Shown: positions 348 through 64,000, counted from the stretch's first letter. The stretch is DNA of 64,000 bases from Dictyostelium discoideum (GCA_000004695.1 CM000154.2:2880001-2944000); one strand, 5' to 3'. Notes: generated by a model from the sequence alone, not told the origin. Numbers and translations: made by a program.

Positions 348-1466
348 ATGGAAATTAATGTTCAAGCTATAGTTATTGATAATGGTTCTGATACGTGTAA
401 AGCTGGTTTTGTTGGTGAAGAAGCTCCACATTCAGAGTTCCCATCGATTGTTGGTATTGATCAAAATGATTCATATGTTGGTAATGAAGCTCAATCAAAA
501 AGAGGTATTCTAACTCTTAAATATCCAATTGAACGTGGTATTATTACCAATTGGGATGATATGGAAAAAATCTGGCATCATGCTTTTTATAATGAACTTG
601 GTGTTGCTCCAGAGGAAAATATAGTAGTTTTATCTGAATCACCATTAAATCCAGAAGAAAATAGAGAGAAAATGGCTCAAATCATGTTTGAAACTTTCAA
701 AACTCCTGCAATATATGTTGAAAACCAAGCTGTATTTTCGATTTATAATTCTGGTCGTATGACTGGTATCGTTCTGGATTCAGGTGATAGTGCTTCTCAT
801 GTTGTACCAGTTTATGAAGGTCTTGCATTGCCACATGCGACTTCAAGTTTAGGTTTTGCTGGTTGTGATCTTACTGATCAAATGAGTTTATTATTAAATG
901 ATCTTGGTTACAACCTTGAAAGAGAAATAGTTAGAGATATTAAAGAGAAACTATCATATGTTTCATCAGATTTTTCATGGGAAATTAACGATCCATCAAC
1001 ATTAGGGAAATCATATGAACTACCAGACGGTCAAGTTATTACAATTGATAAAGAACTTTTTGCTTGCCCAGAGGTACTTTTCCTCCCATATGCATTTTTT
1101 GGTACGAACCTTGATGGTATTGACAAAGCAATCTATAATTCAATCATGAAGTGTAATGATGATATTCATAATGATTTATATGGTAATGTTGTATTATCAG
1201 GTGGTTCAACTATGTTCCCAGGTATTGAATATCGTATGTATAAAGGATTAACACAACTTGCACCATCAACAACGGAAATTGTAATTAATGCAGAACCAGA
1301 TCGTAAGAACTCTGTATGGATTGGTGGTTCAATTTTAGGCTTAGTTCCAAATTTCCAAGAATTGTGTATTGACAAAGAAGATTATGATGAATATGGTCCA
1401 TCGTTTGTGAACTTAGTAAAAAGTTTTAGAGAACAAAATCACCAAAATTATTATGGTGAAAATTAA
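348..1466 (+). CDS. Divergent actin (372 aa). It lacks the DNase-I-binding-loop segment [14 protein letters not shown] and carries a G->D change in the first phosphate-binding loop.
   Basis: Full-length ORF alignable to actin throughout (DNGSxxCKAGF, [36 protein letters not shown]). Residues 38-51 of canonical actin are replaced by IDQND. Confidence 0.85.
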
Positions 1467-1467
1467 C

Positions 1468-1509
<42 letters not shown>

Positions 1510-1628
1510 CAATTCCAGTTTTCTTCAAATTTTATTCTTAAAAATTATTTTTAAAATTATATTATTAATAAAAATGTTATAAATTTATGGGAAAATATTA
1601 TATTAATTTTTTTTGTTTTGGTAATAAT

Positions 1629-1680
<52 letters not shown>

Positions 1681-1810
1681 TTTTTTTTTTTTTTTTTTTT
1701 TTTTGTATAAATAATTATTTTTTAAATGAAAAAAAAAAATAAAAAAACTTTAAAAAATAAACAATAATTTATATATTCAAATAATAATCAAAATAATAAA
1801 AAAAAAAAAA

Positions 1811-2459
1811 ATGGAAAGTGAAGATGTTCAAGCTTTATTTTTTTTTTTTTTTCTTAGTTTATCAATTATCTACTATTTTTAAATATATAAACTGAGATGT
1901 ATATTAATAAAATAATTTATTTTGCCAGAATGTAATAATTATATCTCACTAATAAAAATATCCATATAAGGAGAATGTAATTATATAAAATTTTGTTTTT
2001 AAGTTTTTTTTTTTTTTTAAGCAAAATATTAATTTTTCAAATTACAACATTATGACAACCAAAAGTGATTTCTATGGGGCTGACCCCTTAGATTTTTCAA
2101 ATCTAGAAGCACTTTTCCGACCATCATTATTGGCTATGGGCTGTGGTGGTATTCATGAAACAATCTATAATTCAATCATGAAATGTGATTATGATATTCG
2201 TAAATATTTATTTGGTAGTGTGGTATTATCAGGTGGTTCAACTATGTTTCCAGGTATTGCAGATCGTATGAATAAAGAATTAACTGCACTTGCACCATCA
2301 ACAATGAAAATTAAAATTATTGCACCACCAGAACGTAAATACTCTGTATGGATTGGTGGTTCAATTTTAGCCTCACTTTCAAATTGTCAAGAAATGTGGA
2401 TTTCAAAAGAAGAATATGACGAATCTGGTCCATCAATTATTCACAGAAAATGTTTCTAA
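1811..2459 (+). pseudogene. Actin pseudogene with internal deletion. First 10 codons (MESEDVQAL) sit at 1811..1840, about 250 bp of unrelated sequence follows, then the C-terminal ~120 codons at ~2096..2459.
   Basis: 1801..1843 is identical to the start of the intact actin at 4652. ORF 2052..2459 matches the actin C-terminus ([14 protein letters not shown]...HRKCF*). The 3' flank matches the flank of the 4652 actin. About 240 codons are missing. Confidence 0.75.
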
Positions 2460-3080
2460 AAAAAATAGTTAAATTAATATAATAAAATAAAAATTATAAA
2501 AACAAAAAAAAAAAAACAAAAAAAAAAATTAAAAAAAAAAAAAAAATCATTTTTGAAACAAAAAATAGAATTAGTTTCTTGTCGATAAAAGAAATAACCA
2601 CTCATATAAATTTTTTTCACCAATGACATAATTTTGGCTCTATTTACGTAATATACCATTAAAGCATTCGCTGAAAAAAAAAAAGGTTAAAAAATAAAAC
2701 AAAAAAAAAAAAAAAAACAAAAAAACTAAAAGTCTAAAAGTATGGTTGGTTGAAAAAAAAAAATTTTGAGCAGATGATCATGATCTTTTTTTTTTGGTGG
2801 TCATTTTTTAAAAATAAATAAAAAAAAAAAATAGAGAAAAAAAGTATGGTTTTTATTTAATCACATAAATAGTTGTTGCATCATTGTTTTTTGTTTTTCT
2901 ATTTTTATTTTTATATTTTTTTTTTTTTTTTATTCCCACACAGAATAACGTCTATTCGTGTTTTTCTATTTCTATTTTTATTTTTTTTAAAATCAAAATT
3001 AAAATTATTTTTAAATCAATTTTAATTCGTAATTTCAAGATATAAGGAATATCCATATAAGGAAATATTGTAAAAATAAA

Positions 3081-4142
3081 ATGGAAATTAATGTTCAAGC
3101 TATAGTTATTGATAATGGTTCTGATACGTGTAAAGCTGGTTTTGTTGGTGAAGAAGCTCCACGTTCAGAGTTCCCATCGATTGTTGGTATTGATCAAAAT
3201 GATAAAGATTCATATGTTGGTAATGAAGCTCAATCAAAAAGAGGTATTCTAACTCTTAAATATCCAATTGAACGTGGTATTATTACCAATTGGGATGATA
3301 TGGAAAAAATCTGGCATCATGCTTTTTATAATGAACTTGGTGTTGCTCCAGAGGAAAATATAGTAGTTTTATCTGAATCACCATTAAATCCAGAAGAAAA
3401 TAGAGAGAAAATGGCTCAAATCATGTTTGAAACTTTCAAAACTCCTGCAATATATGTTGAAAACCAAGCTGTATTTTCGATTTATAATTCTGGTCGTATG
3501 ACTGGTATCGTTCTGGATTCAGGTGATAGTGCTTCTCATGTTGTACCAGTTTATGAAGGTCTTGCATTGCCACTTGCGACTTCAAGTTTAGGTTTTGCTG
3601 GTTGTGATCTTACTGATCAAATGAGTTTATTATTAAATGATCTTGGTTACAACCTTGAAAGAGAAATAGTTAGAGATATTAAAGAGAAACTATCATATGT
3701 TTCATCAGATTTTTTATGGGAAATTGACGATCCATCATTAGAGAAATCATATGAACTACCAGACGGTCAAGTTATTACAATTGGTAAAGAACTTTTAGCT
3801 TGCTCAGAGGGACTTTTCCTCCCATATGTATTTTTTGGTACGAACCTTGATGGTATTGACAAAGCAATCTATAATTCAATCATGAAATGTGATGTTGATA
3901 TTCATAATGATTTATATGGTAATGTTGTATTATCAGGTGGTTCAACTATGTTCCCAGGTATTGAATATCGTATGTATAAAGAATTAACACAACTTGCACC
4001 ATCAACAACGGAAATTGTAATTAATGCACCACCAGAACGTAAGAACTCTGTATGGATTGGTGGTTCAATTTTAGGCTTAGTTCCAAATTTCCCAGAATTG
4101 TGTTTTGACAAAGAAGATTATGATGAATATGGTCGGTTGTGA
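3081..4142 (+). CDS. Divergent actin, copy 2 (353 aa). The C-terminus is truncated by an indel/frameshift near 4130 relative to copy 1. Possibly a decaying paralog.
   Basis: About 97% identical to 348..1466. It retains KD ([12 protein letters not shown]) and ends ...DEYGRL* where copy 1 continues [11 protein letters not shown]... Confidence 0.8.
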
Positions 4143-4498
4143 ACTTAGTAAAAAGTATAAGAGAAGAAATTCAGATAACAAACACAAATTCACAGTTAAA
4201 AAAATAAAATAAAAAAATAAAAAAATAAAAAAATAAATAATAAAATTTAATAAAATAAATTAAATAAACTATTTTTTAGGTTCTTTTGATTTATTTTTTG
4301 TAATTTTATTTTATTTTTATTTTATAATTTTATACAAATTTTAAATAATTTCAAAAAAAAAAAAATAAAAAAAAAAATTCAATTCCAGTTTTCTTCAAAT
4401 TTTATTCTTAGAAATTATTTTTAAAATTATATTATTAATAAAAATGTTATAAATTTATGTGAAAATATTATATTTATTTTTATTTGTTTTGTTATTAT

Positions 4499-4546
<48 letters not shown>

Positions 4547-4639
4547 TATAAATAATTATTTTTTAAATGAAAAAAAAAAATAAAAAACTTTAAAAAATAA
4601 ACAATAATTTATATATTCAAATAATAATCAAAATAATAA

Positions 4640-5782
<1,143 letters not shown>

Positions 5783-6517
5783 TTTTAAAAGAAAAAAAAA
5801 AAACAACGTTGTTGGAAATTCCTTTACCAACATAGTTAAATAAAATAAAATTAAATAAAAATTATAAAATAAAAAACAAAAAACAAAAAACTAAAAACCA
5901 AAGTATGATATGTTTTAAAAAAAAAAAAAAAAAGTCTAAACTTTACAACTAAAGTAAAAAAAAAAAAAAAAAAAAAAACCCATGGTGTTGGAAATTCCAA
6001 GACCAAATCATAATAAACATATTGTGTGAGATTAAAAAAAAAAAAAAAAAAGGTATACTTTTTGGTTAATTGAATAAATAGTAGTATTTTTTTTTTTTTT
6101 TTTTTTTTAATCCCACAGAATAATGTCTGAATCAAACCAATAAAAAATTTTTATCGTATATTTTTGAGTTCTATTTTTAAAAACTAAATTGATTTTAAAA
6201 ATAAATTAAATCATTGTTAATATTAAAAAAAAAAAAAAAAAAATGAAAAATAAAATTATAATATTTTTTTTTAAAGAAAATAATAAATATTAGATTTAAT
6301 TAAAAGTAAATAATAGTTAGTTTTTTGGGTAATAACTAAGTTGGATTTTCAAGTAATTTAAAAAAAAAAAAAAAAATTAAAAAAATATAATAAAATAATA
6401 AAGAAAACTTTTTTAAAAAACTTTTAATGATTTAAATAATAAACTTATTATTTTTTGTAATTTAATTTTATTTTTTTTTTTATTTTTATAATTTTAAACA
6501 AATTTTACATTTAATTT

Positions 6518-6584
<67 letters not shown>

Positions 6585-6805
6585 ATTTCCTTTTTTTTCA
6601 AATTTTATTTTTGGAAATTATTTTATATTATATTTTTAAAAAGAGGTTATAAATTTATGTAAAAATATTATTTTTTATTTTTATTTGGTTTTTTTTTTTT
6701 TTTTTTTTTTTTTTGAATAAATAATTTTTATTAAACTAAAAAAAAAAATAAAACATTAAAAAAATAAACAATAATTTATGTATCTAAATAATATTAAAAA
6801 AAAAA

Positions 6806-7948
6806 ATGGAAAGAGAAGAAGTTCAAGCTATAGTTATTGATAATGGTTCTGATATGTGTAAAGCTGGTTTTGCTGGTGATGATGCTCCACGTGCAGTTTT
6901 CCAATCAATTGTTGGTCGCCCAAGATATACCGGTGTTATGGATGTTATGGGTCAAAAGGATTCATATATTGGTGATGAGGCTCATTCGAGAAAAGGTTTT
7001 TTAACTCTTAAATATCCAATTGAACGTGGTATTGTTACCAATTGGGATGATATGGAAGAAATCTGGCATCATACTTTTTATAATGAACTTGGTGTTGCTC
7101 CAGAGGAACATCCAGTTCTCTTAACTGAACAACCATTAAATCCAAAAAAAAATAGAGAGAAAATGACTCAAATCATGTTTGAAACTTTCAATACTCCTGC
7201 AATGTATGTTGCCATTCAAGCTGTATTATCACTTTATTCATCTGGTCGTACAACTGGTATCGTTATGGATTCAGGTGATGGTGTTTCTCATGCCGTATCG
7301 ATTTATGAAGGTCATGCATTACCACATGCAATTTTACGTTTGGATTTAGCAGGTCGTGATCTTTCTGATTACATGATGAAAATCTTAACTAAACGTGGTT
7401 ACTCATTTACAACAACTGCTGAAAAAGAAATAATTAAAGATATTAAAGAGAAATTATCATATGTAGCATTGGATTTTGATGCTGAGATGCTAACTGCAGC
7501 CTCGTCAACAACATTAGAGAAATCATATGAATTACCAGACGGTAAAGTTATTACAATTGGTAATGAACGTTTCCGTTGTCCAGAGGCACTTTTTCAACCA
7601 TCATTATTGGCTATGGAATCTGCTGGTATTCATGAAACAATCTATAATTCAATCATGAAATGTGATGTTGATATTCGTAGATATTTATTTGGTAATGTTA
7701 TATTATCAGGTGGTTCGACAATGTTCCCAGGTATTGCAGATCGTATGAATAAAGAATTAACTGCACTTGCACCATCAACAATGAAAATTAAAATTATTGC
7801 ACCACCAGAACGTAAATACTCTGTATGGGTTGGTGGTTCAATTTTAGCCTCACTTTCGAGTTTCCAAGAAATGTGGATTTCAAAAGAAGAATATAATGAA
7901 TCTGGTCCATCAATTGTTCACAGAAAATGTTCTAATTATTTAAAATAA
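6806..7948 (+). CDS. Actin variant (380 aa, starts MEREEVQ, C-terminal extension HRKCSNYLK)
   Basis: Full-length actin ORF, about 90% identical to major actin. Preceded at 6040..6135 by the same upstream module as the divergent actins. Confidence 0.9.
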
Positions 7949-8907: not shown

Positions 8908-10870
8908 ATGATTGAAGGTAGTGGTAGTAAAACTCCAAAGAGAAACTCTGATGAAATTTCAGTCAAGAGTTTAAGTATTCATGAAGCCAATACATTATCA
9001 TCTGAACATGAACATGAAAGTGGAAATGAAGAATTAACCCTCAGTCAAATTGTTATTAGATCAGACTTTGCCAATGAATCCTCTGAAAGACAATCAAAGA
9101 TCATTTTGGATAGATTCAATCAAGGTATTGGTAAAAACTCTGCATTTACAGATTCACCAGCACTTGGTCGTGGTCTTTCACGTGTTGATGTTAGTTATTT
9201 TGTTATGGGTCATCGTAATCAAGTTGCAGAGTTATATGATCCACGTGGTCAACGTTTCAGTACTGTATTAACACCAGATCCAACTGTTAACATTAAATAC
9301 GTTGGTCCAGTTTCAAAGACTGCACACTACTTTGGTGCCTATGGTAAACATGTCTTAAACGTTCCAGCTGGTCATTATGCTAAAGCATTCTCAAAGAATA
9401 GACCAGTTCTCTATGGTGAAGGTCCACATGTTATCATTGATCCAACTTTCCAATTTGATGAAAATAATGGTTTTGTTAATCAACAAGAACCATTCATTGA
9501 ACATTCAACTATTAATATTCTTAGAATTCCAGCTGGTAAAGTAAGTAAAAATTTTAAAAATAAATTAAAATAATAATAATAATAATAATAATAATTAATA
9601 ATATTTTAATTATTTAATTTTTTCAGATTGCAAAAGTTTGGATTGGTACTCAACCACATATTTTAGAATCACGTCGTGATCCATATGTTTTTGTTGATGC
9701 TCAATTTAAATTAGTTTCACCTGATGGTGCAAAAAAAGCACAACTTTTTGAAAGTTCATCTTGTACCTTTGTTGAACATGGTTCAATTAAACGTATTATT
9801 CCACATGTATGTATAATAATTTTTTAAAAAAAAAAAAAGTTTAAATTAAAAAAATATGTTAATTTTATTTATTTTATTTTAATTAGACTGGTGAAGTTGC
9901 AATTACATATAATAATGGTATTTTAACAATTATTCCAACACCAAAAGATGGTAAACCAGTTATTATTGATTCACCAACTCATAACTTTGAAGGTTTTATT
10001 AGTACAAGTTTACAAACTTGTTTATTCCCATCAAAGGAAACTAAACAACAAGCATTGGCAGATAACAAATCAGCATTGGCAGATGAAATTAATTTAAAGA
10101 TTTTCCAAACCAGAGATTCACTTCGTGTTGGTGTTGTATTGGTAGTTGCATTTAAAATTGTTGACCCAGAACTAGCAATTACTAAACTTGGTAAAGAGGG
10201 TATTATCAATCATATTGAGAATGTTTCATTCGCTGATATGGGTAAAGCAATTCAATTGAGTACTTTACAAGAGATTATGTATTTCAATAGTATTAAACCA
10301 GGTCAAGCCACCAATGATGATAGTGTTCAAACCATTCAAGATCGTGTAAAGAGTCATTTGGCTAGAGATTTATTCGATTATGGTGTTGAGTTATCACGTT
10401 TACAAATTGAAACTATGAAAGTTTTAGATACTGAAATCGCAAAGAAACTCGCTGGCCAATCTGTCACCTCTGCAGAGTTTACCACTAAACAAGCAACCCT
10501 TGTCAAAGAGTATGATATTAAAACCACTGAAGCTCGTCTCAAGGCTGAAACTGATAATATCGCTTTGGAACAAAGAAATAAAGCTATCATCTCTGAATCT
10601 CAAGCTAAATTATCCTCTGCTCAAAGAGAAGCTGAATCTTTACTCATCACTGCTGAGGCTCAAAAGAAAGCTTCTGAATTACAAGGTGAACTCTACACTA
10701 AATATCCAATTCTTGCTGAAATCGAATTGGCTAGAATTAAAGCTGAAGCCCTCAAAAATGCCACCCTTTACATCACTCCTCAAGATGCTGGTGCTTTCAT
10801 GAATTCTCCATTGGTTTATTTCGATAAAATGATGAATGCTAATAATACTATTCAACAAAAAAAGAATTAA
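8908..10870 (+). CDS. SPFH/band-7 flotillin-like protein, vacuolin-like (599 aa). Exons: 8908..9540, 9627..9806, 9887..10870.
   Basis: GTAAGT/GTATGT donors and TTTCAG/AATTAG acceptors, with reading frame preserved across both introns. The central SPFH-like region is followed by an A/E/K-rich coiled-coil tail, like flotillin. Dictyostelium vacuolins are flotillin homologs of about this size. Confidence 0.6.
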
Positions 10871-11659
10871 AATATTTTAATTTAAAACATTAAGAATTAA
10901 AAAAAAAAAAACAAAAAAAAAAAAAAAAACAATACTTTTATTGTTTCATAATTTTCCAAACATTTGTATTTTAAAAAAAAATAAAAAAAAAAAAAAAATT
11001 TCAATCTTTTTTTTTAAAACTATTTCTGGTTTCCTTTTTTAAGCTTGGTTTTTTGTTTTTATTCTTTTTTTTTTTTTTTTTTTTGTTTTTAACAATGATT
11101 TAATTTAATTTATTTTAATATGAATTTAGATAAGAGCGCAAAATGATATAAAAAATGAATGCAAATCATTCTATTTTTTTTTTTTTAAGAATTTAGTTAT
11201 TTATCATTCATTTTTTAAAAAAAAAAAAAATTAATATTAATTGTGAAAAATATAAAAAATAAGATGGAGTGGATTTCCAAAAAAAAACACTTTTTTCTGA
11301 AAATGGACAAAGGTAAAACGACATTTTTATTTAATTTTTTAATTATATAAAGGGAATTTAAATTAAAAAAAAAAAATATATTAAACGGTTGTTAGAATTT
11401 GGAATTTTAAAATTTCTAGGAATCCATTAATTTTGCGCCTTTTTTATTTTTTTTTTGAATTTTTATTTTTTTTCAATTTTTTTTATTTATTTATTTTTTT
11501 TTTTTATTTTTTTTATTTTTATTTTTTTTTCTCATTTTTAATCCATACACATACATTCATTTTATTTAAATAAAAAAATATAAAATAAAAAAAAAAAACC
11601 GAATTTTAAATTTGTATATATATAAAAAATAAATAAAAAATAAAAAAAAAATAAAAAAA

Positions 11660-12033
11660 ATGTCAATTAATCGTGGATGTTTAACAAATATTATTAACGT
11701 TGACCAAACTAAACGTTTTCAAAATATTGATTGTAGAGTTCAAGTTATAAAAACAAAACAATCTTCAAGTAATAATTTAGAAATTCATTTATCAGATCAA
11801 GATCATATTTTTGTTGGTATTTCAAAGACTGATCCATCAAATATTCCAATCAATTCAATTGTTAACCTAAGTGATTTCTCTATAAACTTTCCAAAAAGAT
11901 TCCTTAATATCGTTCAATTCAATGTTATCTCTCAAGAAAAAGAAATTAAAACCGCACAAGGTAAAGCTTTAACATATCACTCAGTATATAAAAAAACAGA
12001 TGGCAATAGTCAAAACAGTAATCAACCACAACC

Positions 12034-12068
<35 letters not shown>

Positions 12069-13699
12069 CAAGAGCAAATACAACAATGGGCTCAAATAGT
12101 GGAATTGCATCAAGAGGTAATCCTTTAGCAAATCAAAGAAATCAAGCAGGTGCAATTAGATCAAATAATAATTTTGGTGGTAATAGTAATAATAATAATA
12201 ATAACAATTATAATAACAACAATAATAATAATAATAATAATAGTGGTGGTGGTTCAAATAATTTTTATGCAGATTTATCAACACAACCAATTACAGATAT
12301 TGAAAGTATAGCACCTGGTATGAATGTTCAATTTACAATCAGAGCAATGGTTAGAAATAAACAACCATTAAAAAGTTGGAATAAGGGAGCCAATGGTGAA
12401 GGTAAACTTTTTAGTATGGAATTGGTAGATAGTACTGGTGAAATTAAATGTGCTTGTTTCTCTGATAGTTCAAATCCAAACAACTTTATCAATGCACTCT
12501 ATGATTGCTTTGAAAATGGTAAAGTCTATTTCATTCAAAGATTCTTTGTTAAAAGTGCAAACAAATTATACAATACACTCTCACATCAATCTGAACTCAG
12601 TATCAACTCTGAATCAAGAGTAATGATTAGTCCAGATCAAACCCAATTCACTCCACATTATAATTTCAAAAAGATTGCTGATATTGAAAACTTGGAAAAG
12701 AACGACACTGTCGATGTTATTGGTGCCATTACAAACATTGATCCAATCGCCAATCTCACTAGCAAACAAGGTAAAGAATTCACCAAATTTGGTATCACCA
12801 TCGCCGATGACACCAATGCCAGTATCAATGTCGTTTTTTGGAATGAAAAAGCCACTGAAGTTGCACCTCAAGTAAAGGTTGGTGATATCATTGCAATGAA
12901 GGGTGTAAAAGTTTCCGATTTCTCTGGTAGAACACTCTCTTATAGTTTTGGTTCATCCTTTGGATTGAATGATGAACAACTTCAAGAAACCAGTAATCTT
13001 CGTGCACATTTACAAAACTTTGATGTCAATTCTCTTCAATCACTTACCATTGCAAGTTCCTACACCCAAAGTTCCTATGAACAAGTTAATCTTCCAATCT
13101 TTTTAATCAGAACCATCTCTGAAGGTTCACCACTCTTCATTTCAGATCCAAAAACAAATAAAAAACTCTATCGTACAATCGGTCAATTCCAACGTGTCGT
13201 TCCTTTAAGTCAAGCTGGAGAGATGGACAAAGGTGATGAAATCTCTTCCAAAATGGAATGGAAATATAAAGCATGCAAAAAATGTAAAAAATCTTGTCCA
13301 GAAGGTAGTTGCCCACAATGTGGTTCAGATGATTGGGAATATGCTTATCGTATGAGTTTGAAATTATCCGATGGTGATGATGCAATCAGTGTTGAGGTAA
13401 TGGGTAAAACTGGTGATAGATTATTTGGTAAAAGCGCTGCAGAATTATATCAAATGAATCAAGAACAAATCAATGAAATCTTTAACACTGTACTTAGTAA
13501 CAATTATGTTGTTTCACTTGCCCCAAGCTCTTATATGGGTAGCAATGGTCAAACTTACAACAGATTCAATGTCTATGATTTTGCAAATCTCTATGATACA
13601 CCAAACAAACTAGTTTCTGGTCCAAATCCAAATGCTCCAAATCAATTCCAAAATTATATTGAAAGTAGTTTTAATGATTGTAGATTATTTAATGAATAA
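11660..13699 (+). CDS. rfa1: Replication protein A 70 kDa subunit (RPA70), 679 aa, single exon
   Basis: OB-fold DBD-A/B similarity (GEGKLFSMELVDSTGEIKCACFSD, VKVSDFSGRTLS). C4 zinc ribbon CKKCKKS...CPQCG. RPA70-like C-terminal domain. N/Q-rich linker. Confidence 0.85.
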
Positions 13700-13953
13700 A
13701 TAAATAAATAAATAAATTATATAAAAATAAAAAATAATAAAAAATATAATATTTTTTTTTTTTTTTAATTAAATTATTTTATATAAATCAACTTTCAAAT
13801 TATTCTAATTTCTAATTAATTTTAGTTTATTTTTTAATTTGATAAATATATATATTTTTTTATTTTTTTTTTTTTTTATTTATATATTTTTTTTTTTTTT
13901 TTTTTTTTTTTTGAAAGAAATCATTTAACTCATTCGCCCATTAAAGTATTAAT

Positions 13954-46892: not shown

Positions 46893-47791
46893 CTAAACAA
46901 TTAAAAGATTTAATTTATTTAAACATGTATTTAATTTATCATAAATTTGAGAACTATTATTTTCTACTATCTTTAAACAATAAAGTAAAATTGATTTTGA
47001 TTTTAATAATAATTTTGAATCTTTTGAATCTTTTAAATCATTTAAATTTGAAATTAAATCTAAATATTTTAAATAGAAAAAAAGTTAGTTTAATTTATTT
47101 TTTTTCTACATAAATTAAAAAAAAAAAAAAAAAAAAAAAAGTTATAATTTTAATTTAATTTACATACTTATGGAAATAATAAAAAATAACTCTACTTTAT
47201 CAGAATGATTATAATTTAAAAGTATATTAATTGATTGTAAACAAATTTCAATACCAAAAATAATTTCTTCATTTTTTAAACCATCTTGAAAAAGTAATTT
47301 TTGGAAAATATTTGAAATTTGTTTAAAATAATAAATTGAATTATCCACAACATAATTGTTATTATTATCACTATTCCCAATACAAAATAGTTTAATTATT
47401 TTTAATAAAAATAATAATTTATTTTTAATGATTGATTCTTTATCATCACTTTCAATTATATTATTATTTATTAATGATGGTAGGATTTGGTTTATTAAAA
47501 TTGAATAATAATTACTTGGTGAAAATGGTAATAGGTTTGAACAAGAAATTAAAAATAATTTTTTAAATTTCTTTTTATTTGAAAATAATTCAATTTTATT
47601 ATGATCATCGTTATCTGTTAAATTTATTAAATTTATAATATCCAAACAAAATTTACTTGAAATACAAGATAATTCAATTAAATTTGATATTTCATGAGTT
47701 TCTTTAAAATTATAATTTAGGTTTGATTTTTCAAGTGATAACCAATTTGATTCTAAAGATAATAACTCTTGTAATTTATTTCCATTAAATA

Positions 47792-47849
<58 letters not shown>

Positions 47850-49653
47850 GTTATTAACATAATTTAAAATTCTAAATTGTAATTTCCAATTTAAATTTTT
47901 AAATATTTCTTGATTGTAATTAAAATGATTAAAAGTGAATAATAATTCTAAAACTTCATAAAACGATTGAATAAAATCTGGTGTAATGACTTCAAAATTA
48001 ATTAATGTAAATTGATAATTTATGTATTCCAATAAAGGCCAAACTATCTTTTCTTTAAGTTGATCTGAAATTTTAAATTTCTTTGTCGTTGTTAATTTTA
48101 AAACTTGAAAAATAATATCAATTTGATAAATATCAATTATTTGTGGTTGTTGTTTTAGGTATTCTAAAAATGAATATATAAAATCTAATAATATTGAATT
48201 TAAGAAAAGTGTTTCAATAATATCACCATTACCATCACCATTTTTTTGAATATGATTTTCTAAAATTAAATCAAAAAATTTAATAAAATTATAAACTTGT
48301 GATTCATTCATTAACCCATATTGAGTTTGTAAAAATCTTGAAAATGATTTCATTACTAACCAACCATTATTATCAGCATCGCAATAAAATAATAATACAT
48401 TTGATAACTTTTGATAAATTAAATCAATAAAGAAATCTGCTTGACCTTTATTCTTTATAATTGATTTCAAGAATGTATCCATTAATAAATTTGGGTCTAG
48501 AAATCCAATTAATTTCAAATCTTGAATAATTGATAGTTCATTCTCTTGATTAATACTATGGTGTTCAAAGAATGAATTGAATTTATCATCTTGATTAATA
48601 TAATAATCATCTTGTATTATTTCATCATTTTTATTATTATTATTATTATTATTATTTACATATTCGTCTTGATTTGAATTTTTTGATTGATGTTGATGTT
48701 GAACTACTGATGTTAACTTATTTAATGATCTAACTAAAATATTTGAAATTGGTGAATTTTTATTTTGAATAATTAAAATTCTTTTTATAATATTTGAATG
48801 TTTTGAAATAATTCTTAAATCATTTAAAAAGGTATCACTATCTGATATTTTACTAAATATTGATAAAAACCATTTAATTAAATAATTTATAATTTCATTA
48901 TCATTGTCAATTATTGATAAACTTGATAAAAAGTATAAAACAAGTGATAAATTTTCAATTTCACTAATTTCAAATTTAAATCCATTTAAAATTGGTATTA
49001 AAAAATCATTATACCAAATTGATAATTTATTTTTAAATTCTTTTTCATTATAATTATTATTATTATTTGGATTATTATAACTCTCTTTAAATTGATGATA
49101 CGGTATCCATATTATAATATTAACTAATTGTTTAAGTTGATTTATATATTTTTGATTTTCATTTATTTGTGATGATGATGATGTTATTAATAATAATCTA
49201 TCGATAATGATTTTAATCCTCTTCAAATTACCACCATTATATTCATTATAATTAAATAATTCAGCAATTTTAAAAAGATTATTGATATTGTTTTCAATTT
49301 CTTTAATTTTATTTCCTTTTTTTATTAAATAATTATTGTTATTATTATTATAATTATTATTATTATTATTATTATTAATATTGTTATAAATTTTATTATC
49401 ATTCATTTCATCTAAATGATTATTCTTTGATATTGAATATAAATGAAAATTTAAAATACCGATTGTACCATTTTGAAATTTCCTTTTATTTAAAAGATTA
49501 TGAAGTGTTGAAACCCTTGAAATTGTAATAAAAGATGTTAAAGTTTGTTTATCCCATTTAACTATAACAATATTATAAAACGATTCTAAAAATTCAATGA
49601 TTTCATCAATTGTTAAAAATGAATAATTTGTAGAATTAATTGTTTGTAGTATT

Positions 49654-49690
<37 letters not shown>

Positions 49691-49882
49691 TTGTTTTTGT
49701 TACTGTTTCGGATGGTTGTGATTCTGGTATATCTTTTAAAATATCATTTAAAAAATCTAGTAAACAAATTGTAAATCTATATTGAAATGTTGGTTCATTT
49801 ATTAATTTAATTGATTGTTCTTTAATTAACATTTCAAAAACCAATGATTTACTTTTACGATAAATACTATCTTTATTATTAC

Positions 49883-49949
<67 letters not shown>

Positions 49950-50675
49950 TTTAAAAAATACTAATTTAAATAAACTTTGAAGTAATATTAAATTTAATTC
50001 ATCACTATTATTATTTAAATTAATTGTATTAATTAATTTAGAGATATTTTCAATTAATATTGATTTAATGAAATTATTTATAAAAATACTATTGTTATGG
50101 TTATTATTATTTATAATTGGTGAATGAAATAAATCTAATTTTTCAATGAAATAAAGGTAACAATTTAAAGGTAATTTAAAATAATAATCACTATTTAACC
50201 TATTCTCAACAGTCCAATCATTTGGGAATAAAATATTTAAATTTTTATTTTTATTTTTATTTTCAAATAATTGATATTGATTACTTCTATCAAATAAAAT
50301 CGTCCTTTTAAATAAAACCTTATTTATTATTGAATTACAAAAATTATTATTACTATTATTATTATTATTATTTATAACAATTTTAAAATAATCAATTATT
50401 TTATTTATACTATTATTTTCATTATATAAAAAATTTATTTCATTATTATTATTATTATTATATTTTTTAATTAAATTTGATAATGATAATAAAATTGGTT
50501 TTATTTCATTTTTAATTTGATAGTGATATTGTTTTTCATTATTATTTATAAATTTATTTAATAATTCATCTGAATATTGATTCCTTTCGTGTCTATATTT
50601 ATTTGCTGTATCAATTTGATATTGTCTTTGTACTGATGATTTAATAGTTATATTTGATGAAATTCGAGAAAACAT
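46893..50675 (-). CDS. Large N-rich protein of unknown function, about 1224 aa. Exons (minus strand): 47168..50675, 46893..47059.
   Basis: Long ORF. Its apparent stop (AGTATGTAA) is actually a GTATGT donor, which splices in phase to a 55-codon terminal exon ending TAG at 46893. Confidence 0.55.
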
Positions 50676-58325: not shown

Positions 58326-59459
<1,134 letters not shown>

Positions 59460-60978: not shown

Positions 60979-61078
60979 NNNNNNNNNNNNNNNNNNNNNN
61001 NNNNNNNNNNNNNNNNNNNNNNNNNNNNNNNNNNNNNNNNNNNNNNNNNNNNNNNNNNNNNNNNNNNNNNNNNNNNNN
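60979..61078. other. Assembly gap (100 N)
   Basis: Run of n characters. Confidence 1.
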
Positions 61079-61734: not shown

Positions 61735-61849
61735 AAAAAAAAAAAATTATTTATTTTAATTATTAAATTTTTTCAATTTTAATATATATTATATAAATTA
61801 ATATTATTAAACATAAAAAAAAAAAACACATTAAAAAAAAAAAAAAATT

Positions 61850-62531
61850 ATGTCAATAAAATTACCACTATCAAATATTAATAGTGGTGGTAATAGTAAT
61901 AATAGTAGTAGTAGTAATAGTACTAGTAATAATAATATAAATATTAATATAGGTAATGGTATACCTACAAATATTGAGAAAATGACATTTGAAGATTCAG
62001 AAACTCAAAAATTAAATATCAAGCAACAATCAAATAATAATACATCAACTTCAGTATGTGTATCATCGATTCATTCCTCGTCACCAATTTCATCACCAAC
62101 ATCACATCAAGTTAATAAATCATCAGGATCATTACCACCAGTAATAAAAAGATCACCAACAACAACTCATCATCATAATAGTAGTGGTAGTAATAGCAGT
62201 AGTAGTAGCAGTGGTAGTAATAATAATAATAATCAAATTAAAACAAGTAATGGAATGAATAAACCAAATCCAACAGGATTTTTATTTGGGAGTAAACCAA
62301 GAGAAAATTCACAAAATAAAATCGATGATAATAAAGGTGTAAATCTAGCAGTTAGTACAAGTAATTCTTCAAATAATTTTCATAAATCGCATTCTGAAAG
62401 TAATATTATAAATATAAATGCACCACCTGTAGAAACTGTAAATATGGAAGAAATTTATAATAATATACCTTCTTCAATTTCAATGGAAAATATTAGAGAG
62501 AATGAAAATAATAATAATAGTAGTAATAACA

Positions 62532-62573
<42 letters not shown>

Positions 62574-64000
62574 GTAATAATATTAATAATGTAAATGGTA
62601 ATAAAAGTAGTTTAGCATCATCCACTTCATCAATATCATCTCTATCATCAGTTTCGACATTATCAACTTCTAATGCTGCTACAAATACAAATACAAATGC
62701 AAATACAACATCAACTACTAAAACTACATCAACAGTAAGATCAACATCACCAACCCAATTTAAACCAAGAGTTGAATTTGATGAAAATAATCCAAATGCA
62801 ATTATTTTATCAAGACAAAGATGTAAATCCATTTCAAGTCCAAGTGATTTTAGGTTGAACCCACCATCAAATGTACATATGCCAACTAGTTCCTTATCGA
62901 CTTCAACTTCAACTACTAATGTTAATGGATTATTATTACCAAATGGTGTTGGTGGGGTTTCAATGTCTTTCACCCCATCAGGTTTACCAATGACTCCACC
63001 AACAAATTCTTCACAGGTTGATACATTACAAATGTCAACTGAAAGTATAACAATTCAACCTTCCTCTTTAGACTCTTCCTCTGAATCAGTTTCTGATGGT
63101 TTACAATCTGTTTCTGGTTCGCCTGTTACTGCTTCACCTTCACCAACTATTTCAAATAACACAAATGCTACTACTACTAATAATAATAATAATACTAATA
63201 CTAATAATAATAATAATAATAATAATAATCAGCATAATCATCACCATCATCAACATAGTCATAGTCAACAACATGATGTTTATCAAATTAAAAAAGAAAA
63301 TTTTCCATCGTCACCAACTTCACCAACTTTATTACCATCAGAAACTCATGATTTCTCTTCTGAATATTCTAGTAATCCAGGTGGTAAATGTGCAATTTGT
63401 AGAAAACCATTGTGGAGTTTCCCAATTAGTGATAAGAGTAGACGTTGTAGAGATTGTTCTTTAGTTGTACATAGAGCATGTGTTCCTTTAGCAACTGAAT
63501 GTCCATCGGCAAAGAAAAGTCCTTCAAAATTATCGGTACCAAATGGTAATCAATCGAATTCATCATCATCATCCTCCTCTTCATCATCATCCTCATCATC
63601 ATCAAACTCATCATCATCTAATACAAAAGGCCATTCGCGTACACCATCATCACCATCAGTTAGTAGTATACCAGGATTTCAATTAACTTCAAATGCGTCA
63701 CAAAATTTACATGTAAATTCTCATACATTATCATTATTAGTAAATGGTGCGACAATTGATTCAAATCATTATAAGAGAAATAAAAAATCATTAGAAGCTG
63801 GAGCAAGAGATTTTCATTTTATATTTCGTGGTTGTGGTATACCTTTAGATGAATTCCCATTGGATTCATATGTATGTGGTCTTTATTCATACTTTGCACA
63901 TGGTAGATTATATTTAACAGAGAGTTATGTTTGTTTTTATGATGGTTTCGTATTCGATAGAACTAAAGAACGTACAAAGATAATTAAAGTATCAAATATT
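61850..64000 (+). CDS. C1 (DAG/phorbol-ester-type zinc finger) plus GRAM domain protein. 3'-partial: 717 codons and still open at the window end.
   Basis: ATG at 61850, open to the end of the window. C1 motif H-x12-CAICRKPLWSF...RRCRDCSLVVHRACVPLATEC. GRAM-like FHFIFRGCGIPLDEFPLDSYVCGLYSYFAHGRLYLTESYVCFYDGFVFDRTKE..IIKVSNI. Long S/N/T-rich linkers. Confidence 0.7.

Follow-up and report, generated by a model that had tools for sequence, protein, structure and literature searches.

The window, a 64,000-nucleotide stretch of Dictyostelium discoideum chromosome 5 with a G+C content of about 22%, ends in an open reading frame (ORF) on the plus strand that runs from an ATG at 61850 to the window end at 64000, 717 codons without a stop. 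The closest in-frame stop on the 5′ side lies at 61832, and the ATG stands in an A-rich context. It comprises codons 1-717 of arkA (ARCK-1, DDB_G0289555): 61850..64000 on the plus strand, 2151 nt of a single exon that is cut by the window end.

The agreement with the known ArkA/ARCK-1 extends to residues, start coordinate, gene length and domain list. The supplement of the Dictyostelium kinome paper (PMC1420674), where DDB0229363 is ARCK-1, or ArkA, prints the first 399 residues of the protein, and the window translation is identical to them throughout (399/399). In dictyBase, arkA occupies chr5 2941850-2946232, 4383 nt in all, and 2941850 - 45 × 64000 gives 61850, exactly the start of the ORF. 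Because 4383 nt correspond to 1460 codons and a stop, arkA is intronless, which agrees with the unbroken frame observed here. The same database describes arkA in terms of ankyrin repeats, PE/DAG binding, a GRAM domain, a TKL kinase and the ARK family. The sequence match covers aa 1-399, and aa 400-717, where both domains discussed below are found, are assigned by coordinates, gene length and annotation.

With the window stopping at codon 717 of 1460, the sequence at hand is the regulatory N-terminal 49% of a 1460-aa kinase, and 2232 nt of the gene remain past 64000, in keeping with the preliminary description of this DNA, which had the gene running beyond the window end. By annotation and by comparison with orthologues, the part past 64000 is predicted to hold the rest of the GRAM domain, the ankyrin repeats and the TKL kinase domain. 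The kinome paper supplement has the kinase domain of ArkA begin at about residue 1112, beyond the window, and the table of the same paper lists its motifs as VAIK, HRDIKTLN and DFG and classes the kinase as active (PMC1420674).

Elsewhere in the window, four tandem actin ORFs (372, 353, 376 and 380 aa) lie at 348-7948 on the plus strand; the first two are shorter, with a Pfam Actin match split in two stretches, and may be divergent copies or pseudogenes. A fifth actin is found at 58326-59456 on the minus strand, 2.4 kb upstream of arkA and opposite to it in orientation. With its low G+C and several actin genes, the window has a Dictyostelium character, and the genus assumed in the preliminary description was correct. 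The neighbours at 10055-20399 are ordinary housekeeping genes: a Band 7/SPFH protein (10055-10870), an RPA70-like OB-fold protein (11660-13699), VASP (13954-14994, minus strand), the C terminus of PIG-S (16095-16874, minus strand) and COG5, whose split over two ORFs (17974-18648 and 18798-20399) implies an intron. A second large kinase gene is represented by a 2120-aa ORF at 40446-46808 on the plus strand, in which the one Pfam match is a protein kinase domain around residues 1564-1724; next to it comes a 1171-aa ORF at 47160-50675 on the minus strand, which could not be annotated. Assembly gaps, each a run of exactly 100 N, are present at 39127-39226 and 60979-61078, the latter some 770 bp 5′ of the start codon of arkA and inside the presumed promoter region.

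Domains of the N-terminal half of ArkA

The first 499 residues (61850..63346, plus strand) form a low-complexity region rich in Ser, Asn and Thr (52% S+N+T), which bears out the earlier characterization of the product as an S/N-rich protein, and are probably disordered. Their coding sequence contains tandem repeat arrays of AAT, TAA, AGT and TCA codons, and a Pfam scan of aa 1-499 returned no family match. At the very start, the peptide MSIKLPLS resembles the MSIKSPLS or MSLKSPIT of the orthologues. Residue 327 of the window ORF is a serine (codon 62828..62830, plus strand), and we checked its surroundings: it lies within RQRCKS, an RxRxxS motif, overlapping KSISSP. Ser327 of DDB_G0289555 is phosphorylated in vivo, with a localisation probability of 0.99999 and a mean log2 H/L of 0.57 in a cAMP stimulation experiment (PMC6397043 Table S3).

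A C1 zinc finger follows at aa 500-551 (63347..63502, plus strand). Pfam C1_1 (PF00130) matches aa 500-550 with 28.6 bits in the full ORF and 30.6 bits in a scan restricted to the last 247 aa (cut-off 26.5 bits), and all eight zinc ligands are in place (H500, C514, C517, C533, C536, H541, C544 and C551), aligned with the ligands of PKC C1 domains and invariant in the alignment. In a phmmer search of PDB chains, the C1A domain of PKC-gamma was the best match (E 2.4e-5), with further PKC C1 domains ranking after it. The AlphaFold model of aa 471-717 reaches pLDDT 62-85 over the C1 only and is informative for this domain alone. Searched against the PDB with Foldseek, it gave C1 domains as all of its first 29 matches (PKC, Munc13, STAC3, chimaerin, Raf CRD and MgcRacGAP), with TM-scores up to 0.76-0.78 and an rmsd of 1.6-2.6 Å over about 50 residues; no E-value was ≤0.001, a consequence of the largely disordered query.

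Two other zinc-finger assignments were rejected. The Rubicon homology domain (PF13901) scored 27.4 and 26.2 bits against a cut-off of 28.1, covers only its C1-like zinc-finger end and overlaps the C1, and a FYVE domain, which also overlaps the C1, scored 13.9 bits in Pfam against a cut-off of 27.8.

The FYVE score bears on the identity of the gene as well, as Yamashita 2006 (PMC2063888) and dictyBase give Ugt52, an Atg26-type sterol glucosyltransferase, a zinc finger (annotated as FYVE) together with PH, GRAM and glycosyltransferase domains, a combination that could make the ORF part of ugt52. However, ugt52 (DDB_G0288655) has its locus elsewhere, at chr5 1802347-1808194, the Ugt52 peptide at residue 142, LIELNKSTDLSNI, occurs in none of the six frames of the window, and the closest homologues of the ORF bear kinase rather than glycosyltransferase domains. 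We therefore ruled out ugt52, the chance of which we regard as negligible, and retain arkA.

The C1 is joined to the GRAM domain by a Ser-rich linker at aa 552-653 (63503..63808, plus strand; 51% S+N+T), which contains a TCA repeat array at 63560-63618 and is modelled with pLDDT <50. The GRAM domain itself is represented by its first ~64 residues, aa 654-717 (63809..64000, plus strand), before the window end cuts it. Pfam GRAM (PF02893) matches aa 654-700 with 25.6 and 28.4 bits against a cut-off of 23.6 bits, placing profile positions 2-46/47 of 112 inside the window; the truncated fragment has pLDDT <50 in the AlphaFold model. Both domains claimed in the preliminary description are thus present above their Pfam cut-offs, in the very kind of profile scan that it had named as the one that could refute it, and the motifs that it quoted occur unchanged: HDFS...CAICRKPLWSF...CRDCSLVVHRACVPLATEC spans aa 500-551 (nt 63347-63502), and GRLYLTESYVCFYDGFVFDRTKE starts at aa 685. 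Counted from the C1 end, the GRLYL motif comes after 134 residues and the Pfam GRAM start after 103.

ArkA shares this Pfam family with Atg26/Ugt51-52, GRAMD1/Aster/Lam, TBC1D8/9 and the myotubularins, and the GRLYLT..CFY core of its GRAM domain is typical of the GRAMD1/Atg26-like subgroup; VASt-containing GRAM proteins were among the weaker phmmer library matches. In these proteins the GRAM domain is coupled to lipid transfer, glycosyltransferase, RabGAP or phosphatase modules, whereas in ArkA it is coupled to a protein kinase. In the literature that we looked at, we found no functional study of the GRAM domain of any protein kinase.

Dictyostelid orthologues and the complete architecture

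A phmmer search with aa 471-717 against 1.84 billion representative proteins yielded 15 matches, of which the best four come from Synstelium polycarpum (EP01133_P005691), Acytostelium subglobosum (XP_012748067), Cavenderia fasciculata (DFA_11248) and Heterostelium album (PPL_01525). A separate homologous-protein search with the same residues gave nothing at E ≤ 0.001, and the D. discoideum protein itself was absent from the matches in either search. According to Pfam, each of the four orthologues has a GRAM domain, ankyrin repeats and a Pkinase domain (the latter with E-values down to 1e-50), and each has a C1, if not in the gene model then in the genomic ORF. It was this order, C1 - GRAM - ankyrin repeats - kinase, that pointed to arkA. 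Annotation and orthologues together establish the full architecture as a disordered S/N-rich N terminus, a C1, a Ser-rich linker, a GRAM domain, ankyrin repeats and a kinase domain with VAIK/HRD/DFG motifs.

This leaves very little room for the suggestion, made when the ORF was first described, that it encodes a lipid-signalling adaptor. A stand-alone, non-enzymatic protein with C1 and GRAM would fit the window itself, where only targeting domains and low-complexity sequence are seen, but the ORF starts a 1460-aa gene whose product is classed as an active TKL/ARK kinase, and 4/4 orthologues run on into ankyrin repeats and a kinase domain. We consider such an adaptor extremely improbable; the ORF encodes the N-terminal regulatory half of the active kinase ArkA/ARCK-1.

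The orthologues resemble ArkA in the N-terminal peptide, in the succession of C1, linker, GRAM, ankyrin repeats and kinase, and in a near-invariant GRAM block. The GRAM domain is the best conserved block of the comparison, with 23 of the 27 invariant columns falling within its 64 residues, including GxxYLTE..CFYD..VFD, and the other four upstream. The orthologues have full GRAM domains, matching for example profile positions 2-109 with E 1.4e-21. Unlike the intronless arkA, two of them, those of Heterostelium (locus L001, ~4700-4730) and Cavenderia (locus L002, ~4230-4300), have an intron within the GRAM domain, after ...DE(T/K)L(I/V)T.

In the same two species, the C1 seemed to be absent, which turned out to be a gene-model artefact. 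The deposited models PPL_01525 (EFA84536) and DFA_11248 (EGG13487) splice or frameshift the C1 out, but the genomic loci carry a canonical one: at 4114-4266 of the Heterostelium album locus GL290984.1 (L001) the DNA encodes HFFKLKYFTQPTRCRLCEQFIWGVIGKQGLMCSDCGFPTHKHCANKISTNC from nt 4114, and at 3420-3572 of the Cavenderia fasciculata locus GL883029.1 (L002) it encodes HHFKSKYFTQPTRCTLCEQFITGVMGKQGLLCKDCGFAAHKNCSTKISHSC from nt 3420, in both cases as part of one long ORF that also covers the N terminus and the start of the GRAM domain. The DFA_11248 model is, in addition, chimeric, being fused to an Amidohydro_2 gene.

Within the library of 1.84 billion representative proteins, only the dictyostelid ArkA orthologues matched both C1 and GRAM, and the pairing looks rare by this measure. 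Of the earlier suggestion that the architecture is uncommon, rarity therefore holds and newness does not, as dictyBase lists both domains for arkA. The kinome paper also gives ARCK-1 an RGS domain (PMC1420674); contrary to this, neither the 717 aa encoded here (E ≤ 10) nor the full-length Acytostelium orthologue (E ≤ 1) gave an RGS match.

A probably atypical C1 and its putative ligands

The zinc scaffold (H, 3×C, ..., H, C, C) and the fold of the ArkA C1 are those of typical C1 domains, such as PKC C1A/C1B, chimaerin, Munc13 and RasGRP, but its loop lengths differ and key Gly and Gln positions are changed. Its spacing is H-x13-C-x2-C-x15-C-x2-C-x4-H-x2-C-x6-C, as compared with the canonical H-x12-C-x2-C-x13/14-C-x2-C-x4-H-x2-C-x7-C, and the adjective canonical, applied to it in the preliminary description, was too strong: the three variable intervals are 13/15/6 rather than 12/13-14/7. 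Relative to the consensus, the D. discoideum domain has NPGGK for QPT-x, one residue longer; a Ser at the conserved Gly after the Trp (W-S versus W-G); and PISDKSRR, with DKSRR where the consensus has GKQG, a gain of one or two residues in which the Gln-Gly is lost and KSR stands for KQG. Pro11 and the Leu-Trp of the β3-4 loop are kept. The orthologues have instead a canonical 12/14/7 C1 with QPT and KQG, both missing from D. discoideum: the spacing is 12/14/7 in Synstelium and Acytostelium, and all four retain QPT, [W/T]-[G/V] and KQG. The C1A domains of PKC conform to the consensus as well.

Work on the C1B domain of PKC-delta has defined the typical DAG/phorbol ester-binding C1 by Pro11, Gly23 and Gln27, together with loop geometry. 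Mutagenesis of that domain by Kazanietz in 1995 reportedly found Gly23 and Gln27 to be needed for phorbol ester binding. In this numbering, the D. discoideum C1 retains the Pro, has Ser at the Gly position and carries KSR for KQG. Because the loop geometry and the Gly and Gln needed for DAG or phorbol ester are lost, we class the C1 of D. discoideum ArkA as most likely atypical and, judging from its sequence, probably not DAG-binding, and the DAG-binding module of the earlier account becomes doubtful on the same grounds, loop lengths and replaced Gly/Gln residues. Such sequence rules are not decisive, and membrane binding or weak DAG binding is retained by some C1 domains of non-consensus sequence.

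The opposite possibility is that the C1 of ArkA works as a DAG/phorbol-ester sensor, which would make ArkA a DAG-regulated kinase replacing the PKC that is missing from Dictyostelium, with the GRAM domain as a second lipid input. The Pfam family that the domain matches above cut-off is that of 'phorbol esters/DAG binding', PKC C1A domains are its best PDB matches, and both Pro11 and the β3-4 loop Leu-Trp persist. The C1 of the orthologues is fully consensus, so that the ancestral protein may well have bound DAG. The label 'PE/DAG binding' in dictyBase is in line with this possibility, as is the proposal in the kinome paper of DAG-regulated kinase signalling through these C1 domains (PMC1420674). 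Against it, the D. discoideum domain has gained residues in both ligand-binding loops (+1 and +1/+2), and the Gly after the Trp and the KQG motif have given way to Ser and KSR. The two replacements fall on the positions corresponding to Gly23 and Gln27, reportedly required in PKC-delta C1B, and the C1 of ARCK-1 is said to have been required for two-hybrid binding to RasB-GTP in the study by Aubry et al. in Dev Biol in 2003, which assigns to the domain a different partner. We accordingly regard a working DAG sensor in D. discoideum as unlikely. The atypical reading agrees with the reported two-hybrid result.

We infer a different mode of action, in which the part of ArkA encoded in the window would be the regulatory and targeting half of the kinase. 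The GRAM domain has a PH-like fold and binds membrane lipids in Atg26, myotubularins and GRAMD1; in ArkA its most likely role would be to dock the enzyme on a membrane. Like other atypical C1 domains, the cysteine-rich domain of Raf-1 binds to Ras or membrane, and the C1 of ArkA is most likely a comparable module for contact with Ras, another protein or a membrane, as opposed to a DAG sensor. The disordered N terminus, phosphorylated in vivo at Ser327, may be a phospho-regulated region, and together the N terminus, C1 and GRAM would govern the site and timing of action of the C-terminal TKL kinase. ARCK-1 reportedly opposes the PP2C phosphatase Spalten in development and cell-type differentiation, again according to Aubry et al. 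Taken jointly, the identity with arkA, the architecture and a regulatory and targeting role with an atypical C1 form the explanation that we hold to be highly probable.

By this account, the closest functional analogy of ArkA would be Raf or KSR. The Raf family combines a Ras-binding domain (RBD), a C1 or cysteine-rich domain and a TKL kinase, and its C1 contacts Ras or membrane, not DAG. ArkA would likewise be a TKL-group kinase regulated by an N-terminal atypical C1, and the Raf CRD is among its fold matches. ArkA differs in having no RBD but a GRAM domain and ankyrin repeats, and its family is not Raf but ARK, which is specific to Dictyostelium.

Since the full consensus is found in the four orthologues from other dictyostelids, the C1 of ArkA may have been DAG-competent in the dictyostelid ancestor and remodelled in the D. 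discoideum lineage to bind Ras or another protein, leaving the GRAM domain to supply the lipid input. We put this history forward tentatively, as a possibility that is less probable than not. If true, it would provide a GRAM-regulated protein kinase and a natural change of C1 ligand within one orthologous group.

ARCK-1 is said to have been characterized genetically in 2003. As a discovery, the locus carries little weight, for dictyBase and the 2006 kinome paper (PMC1420674) already record the gene, the protein and its C1 and GRAM domains. What is modestly new is that the C1 is degenerate in D. discoideum but follows the consensus in four other dictyostelids, and that the gene models of two orthologues are faulty, wrongly lacking it. 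The departure of the D. discoideum C1 from the DAG-binding consensus is relevant to a long-standing proposal, that TKL kinases with a C1 take the place of PKC in Dictyostelium.

One further phmmer match, a 1022-aa protein from a Muranothrix gubernata transcript, carries four GRAM domains ahead of diacylglycerol-kinase catalytic and accessory domains and lacks a C1; in this unrelated protist, GRAM is again connected with DAG metabolism.
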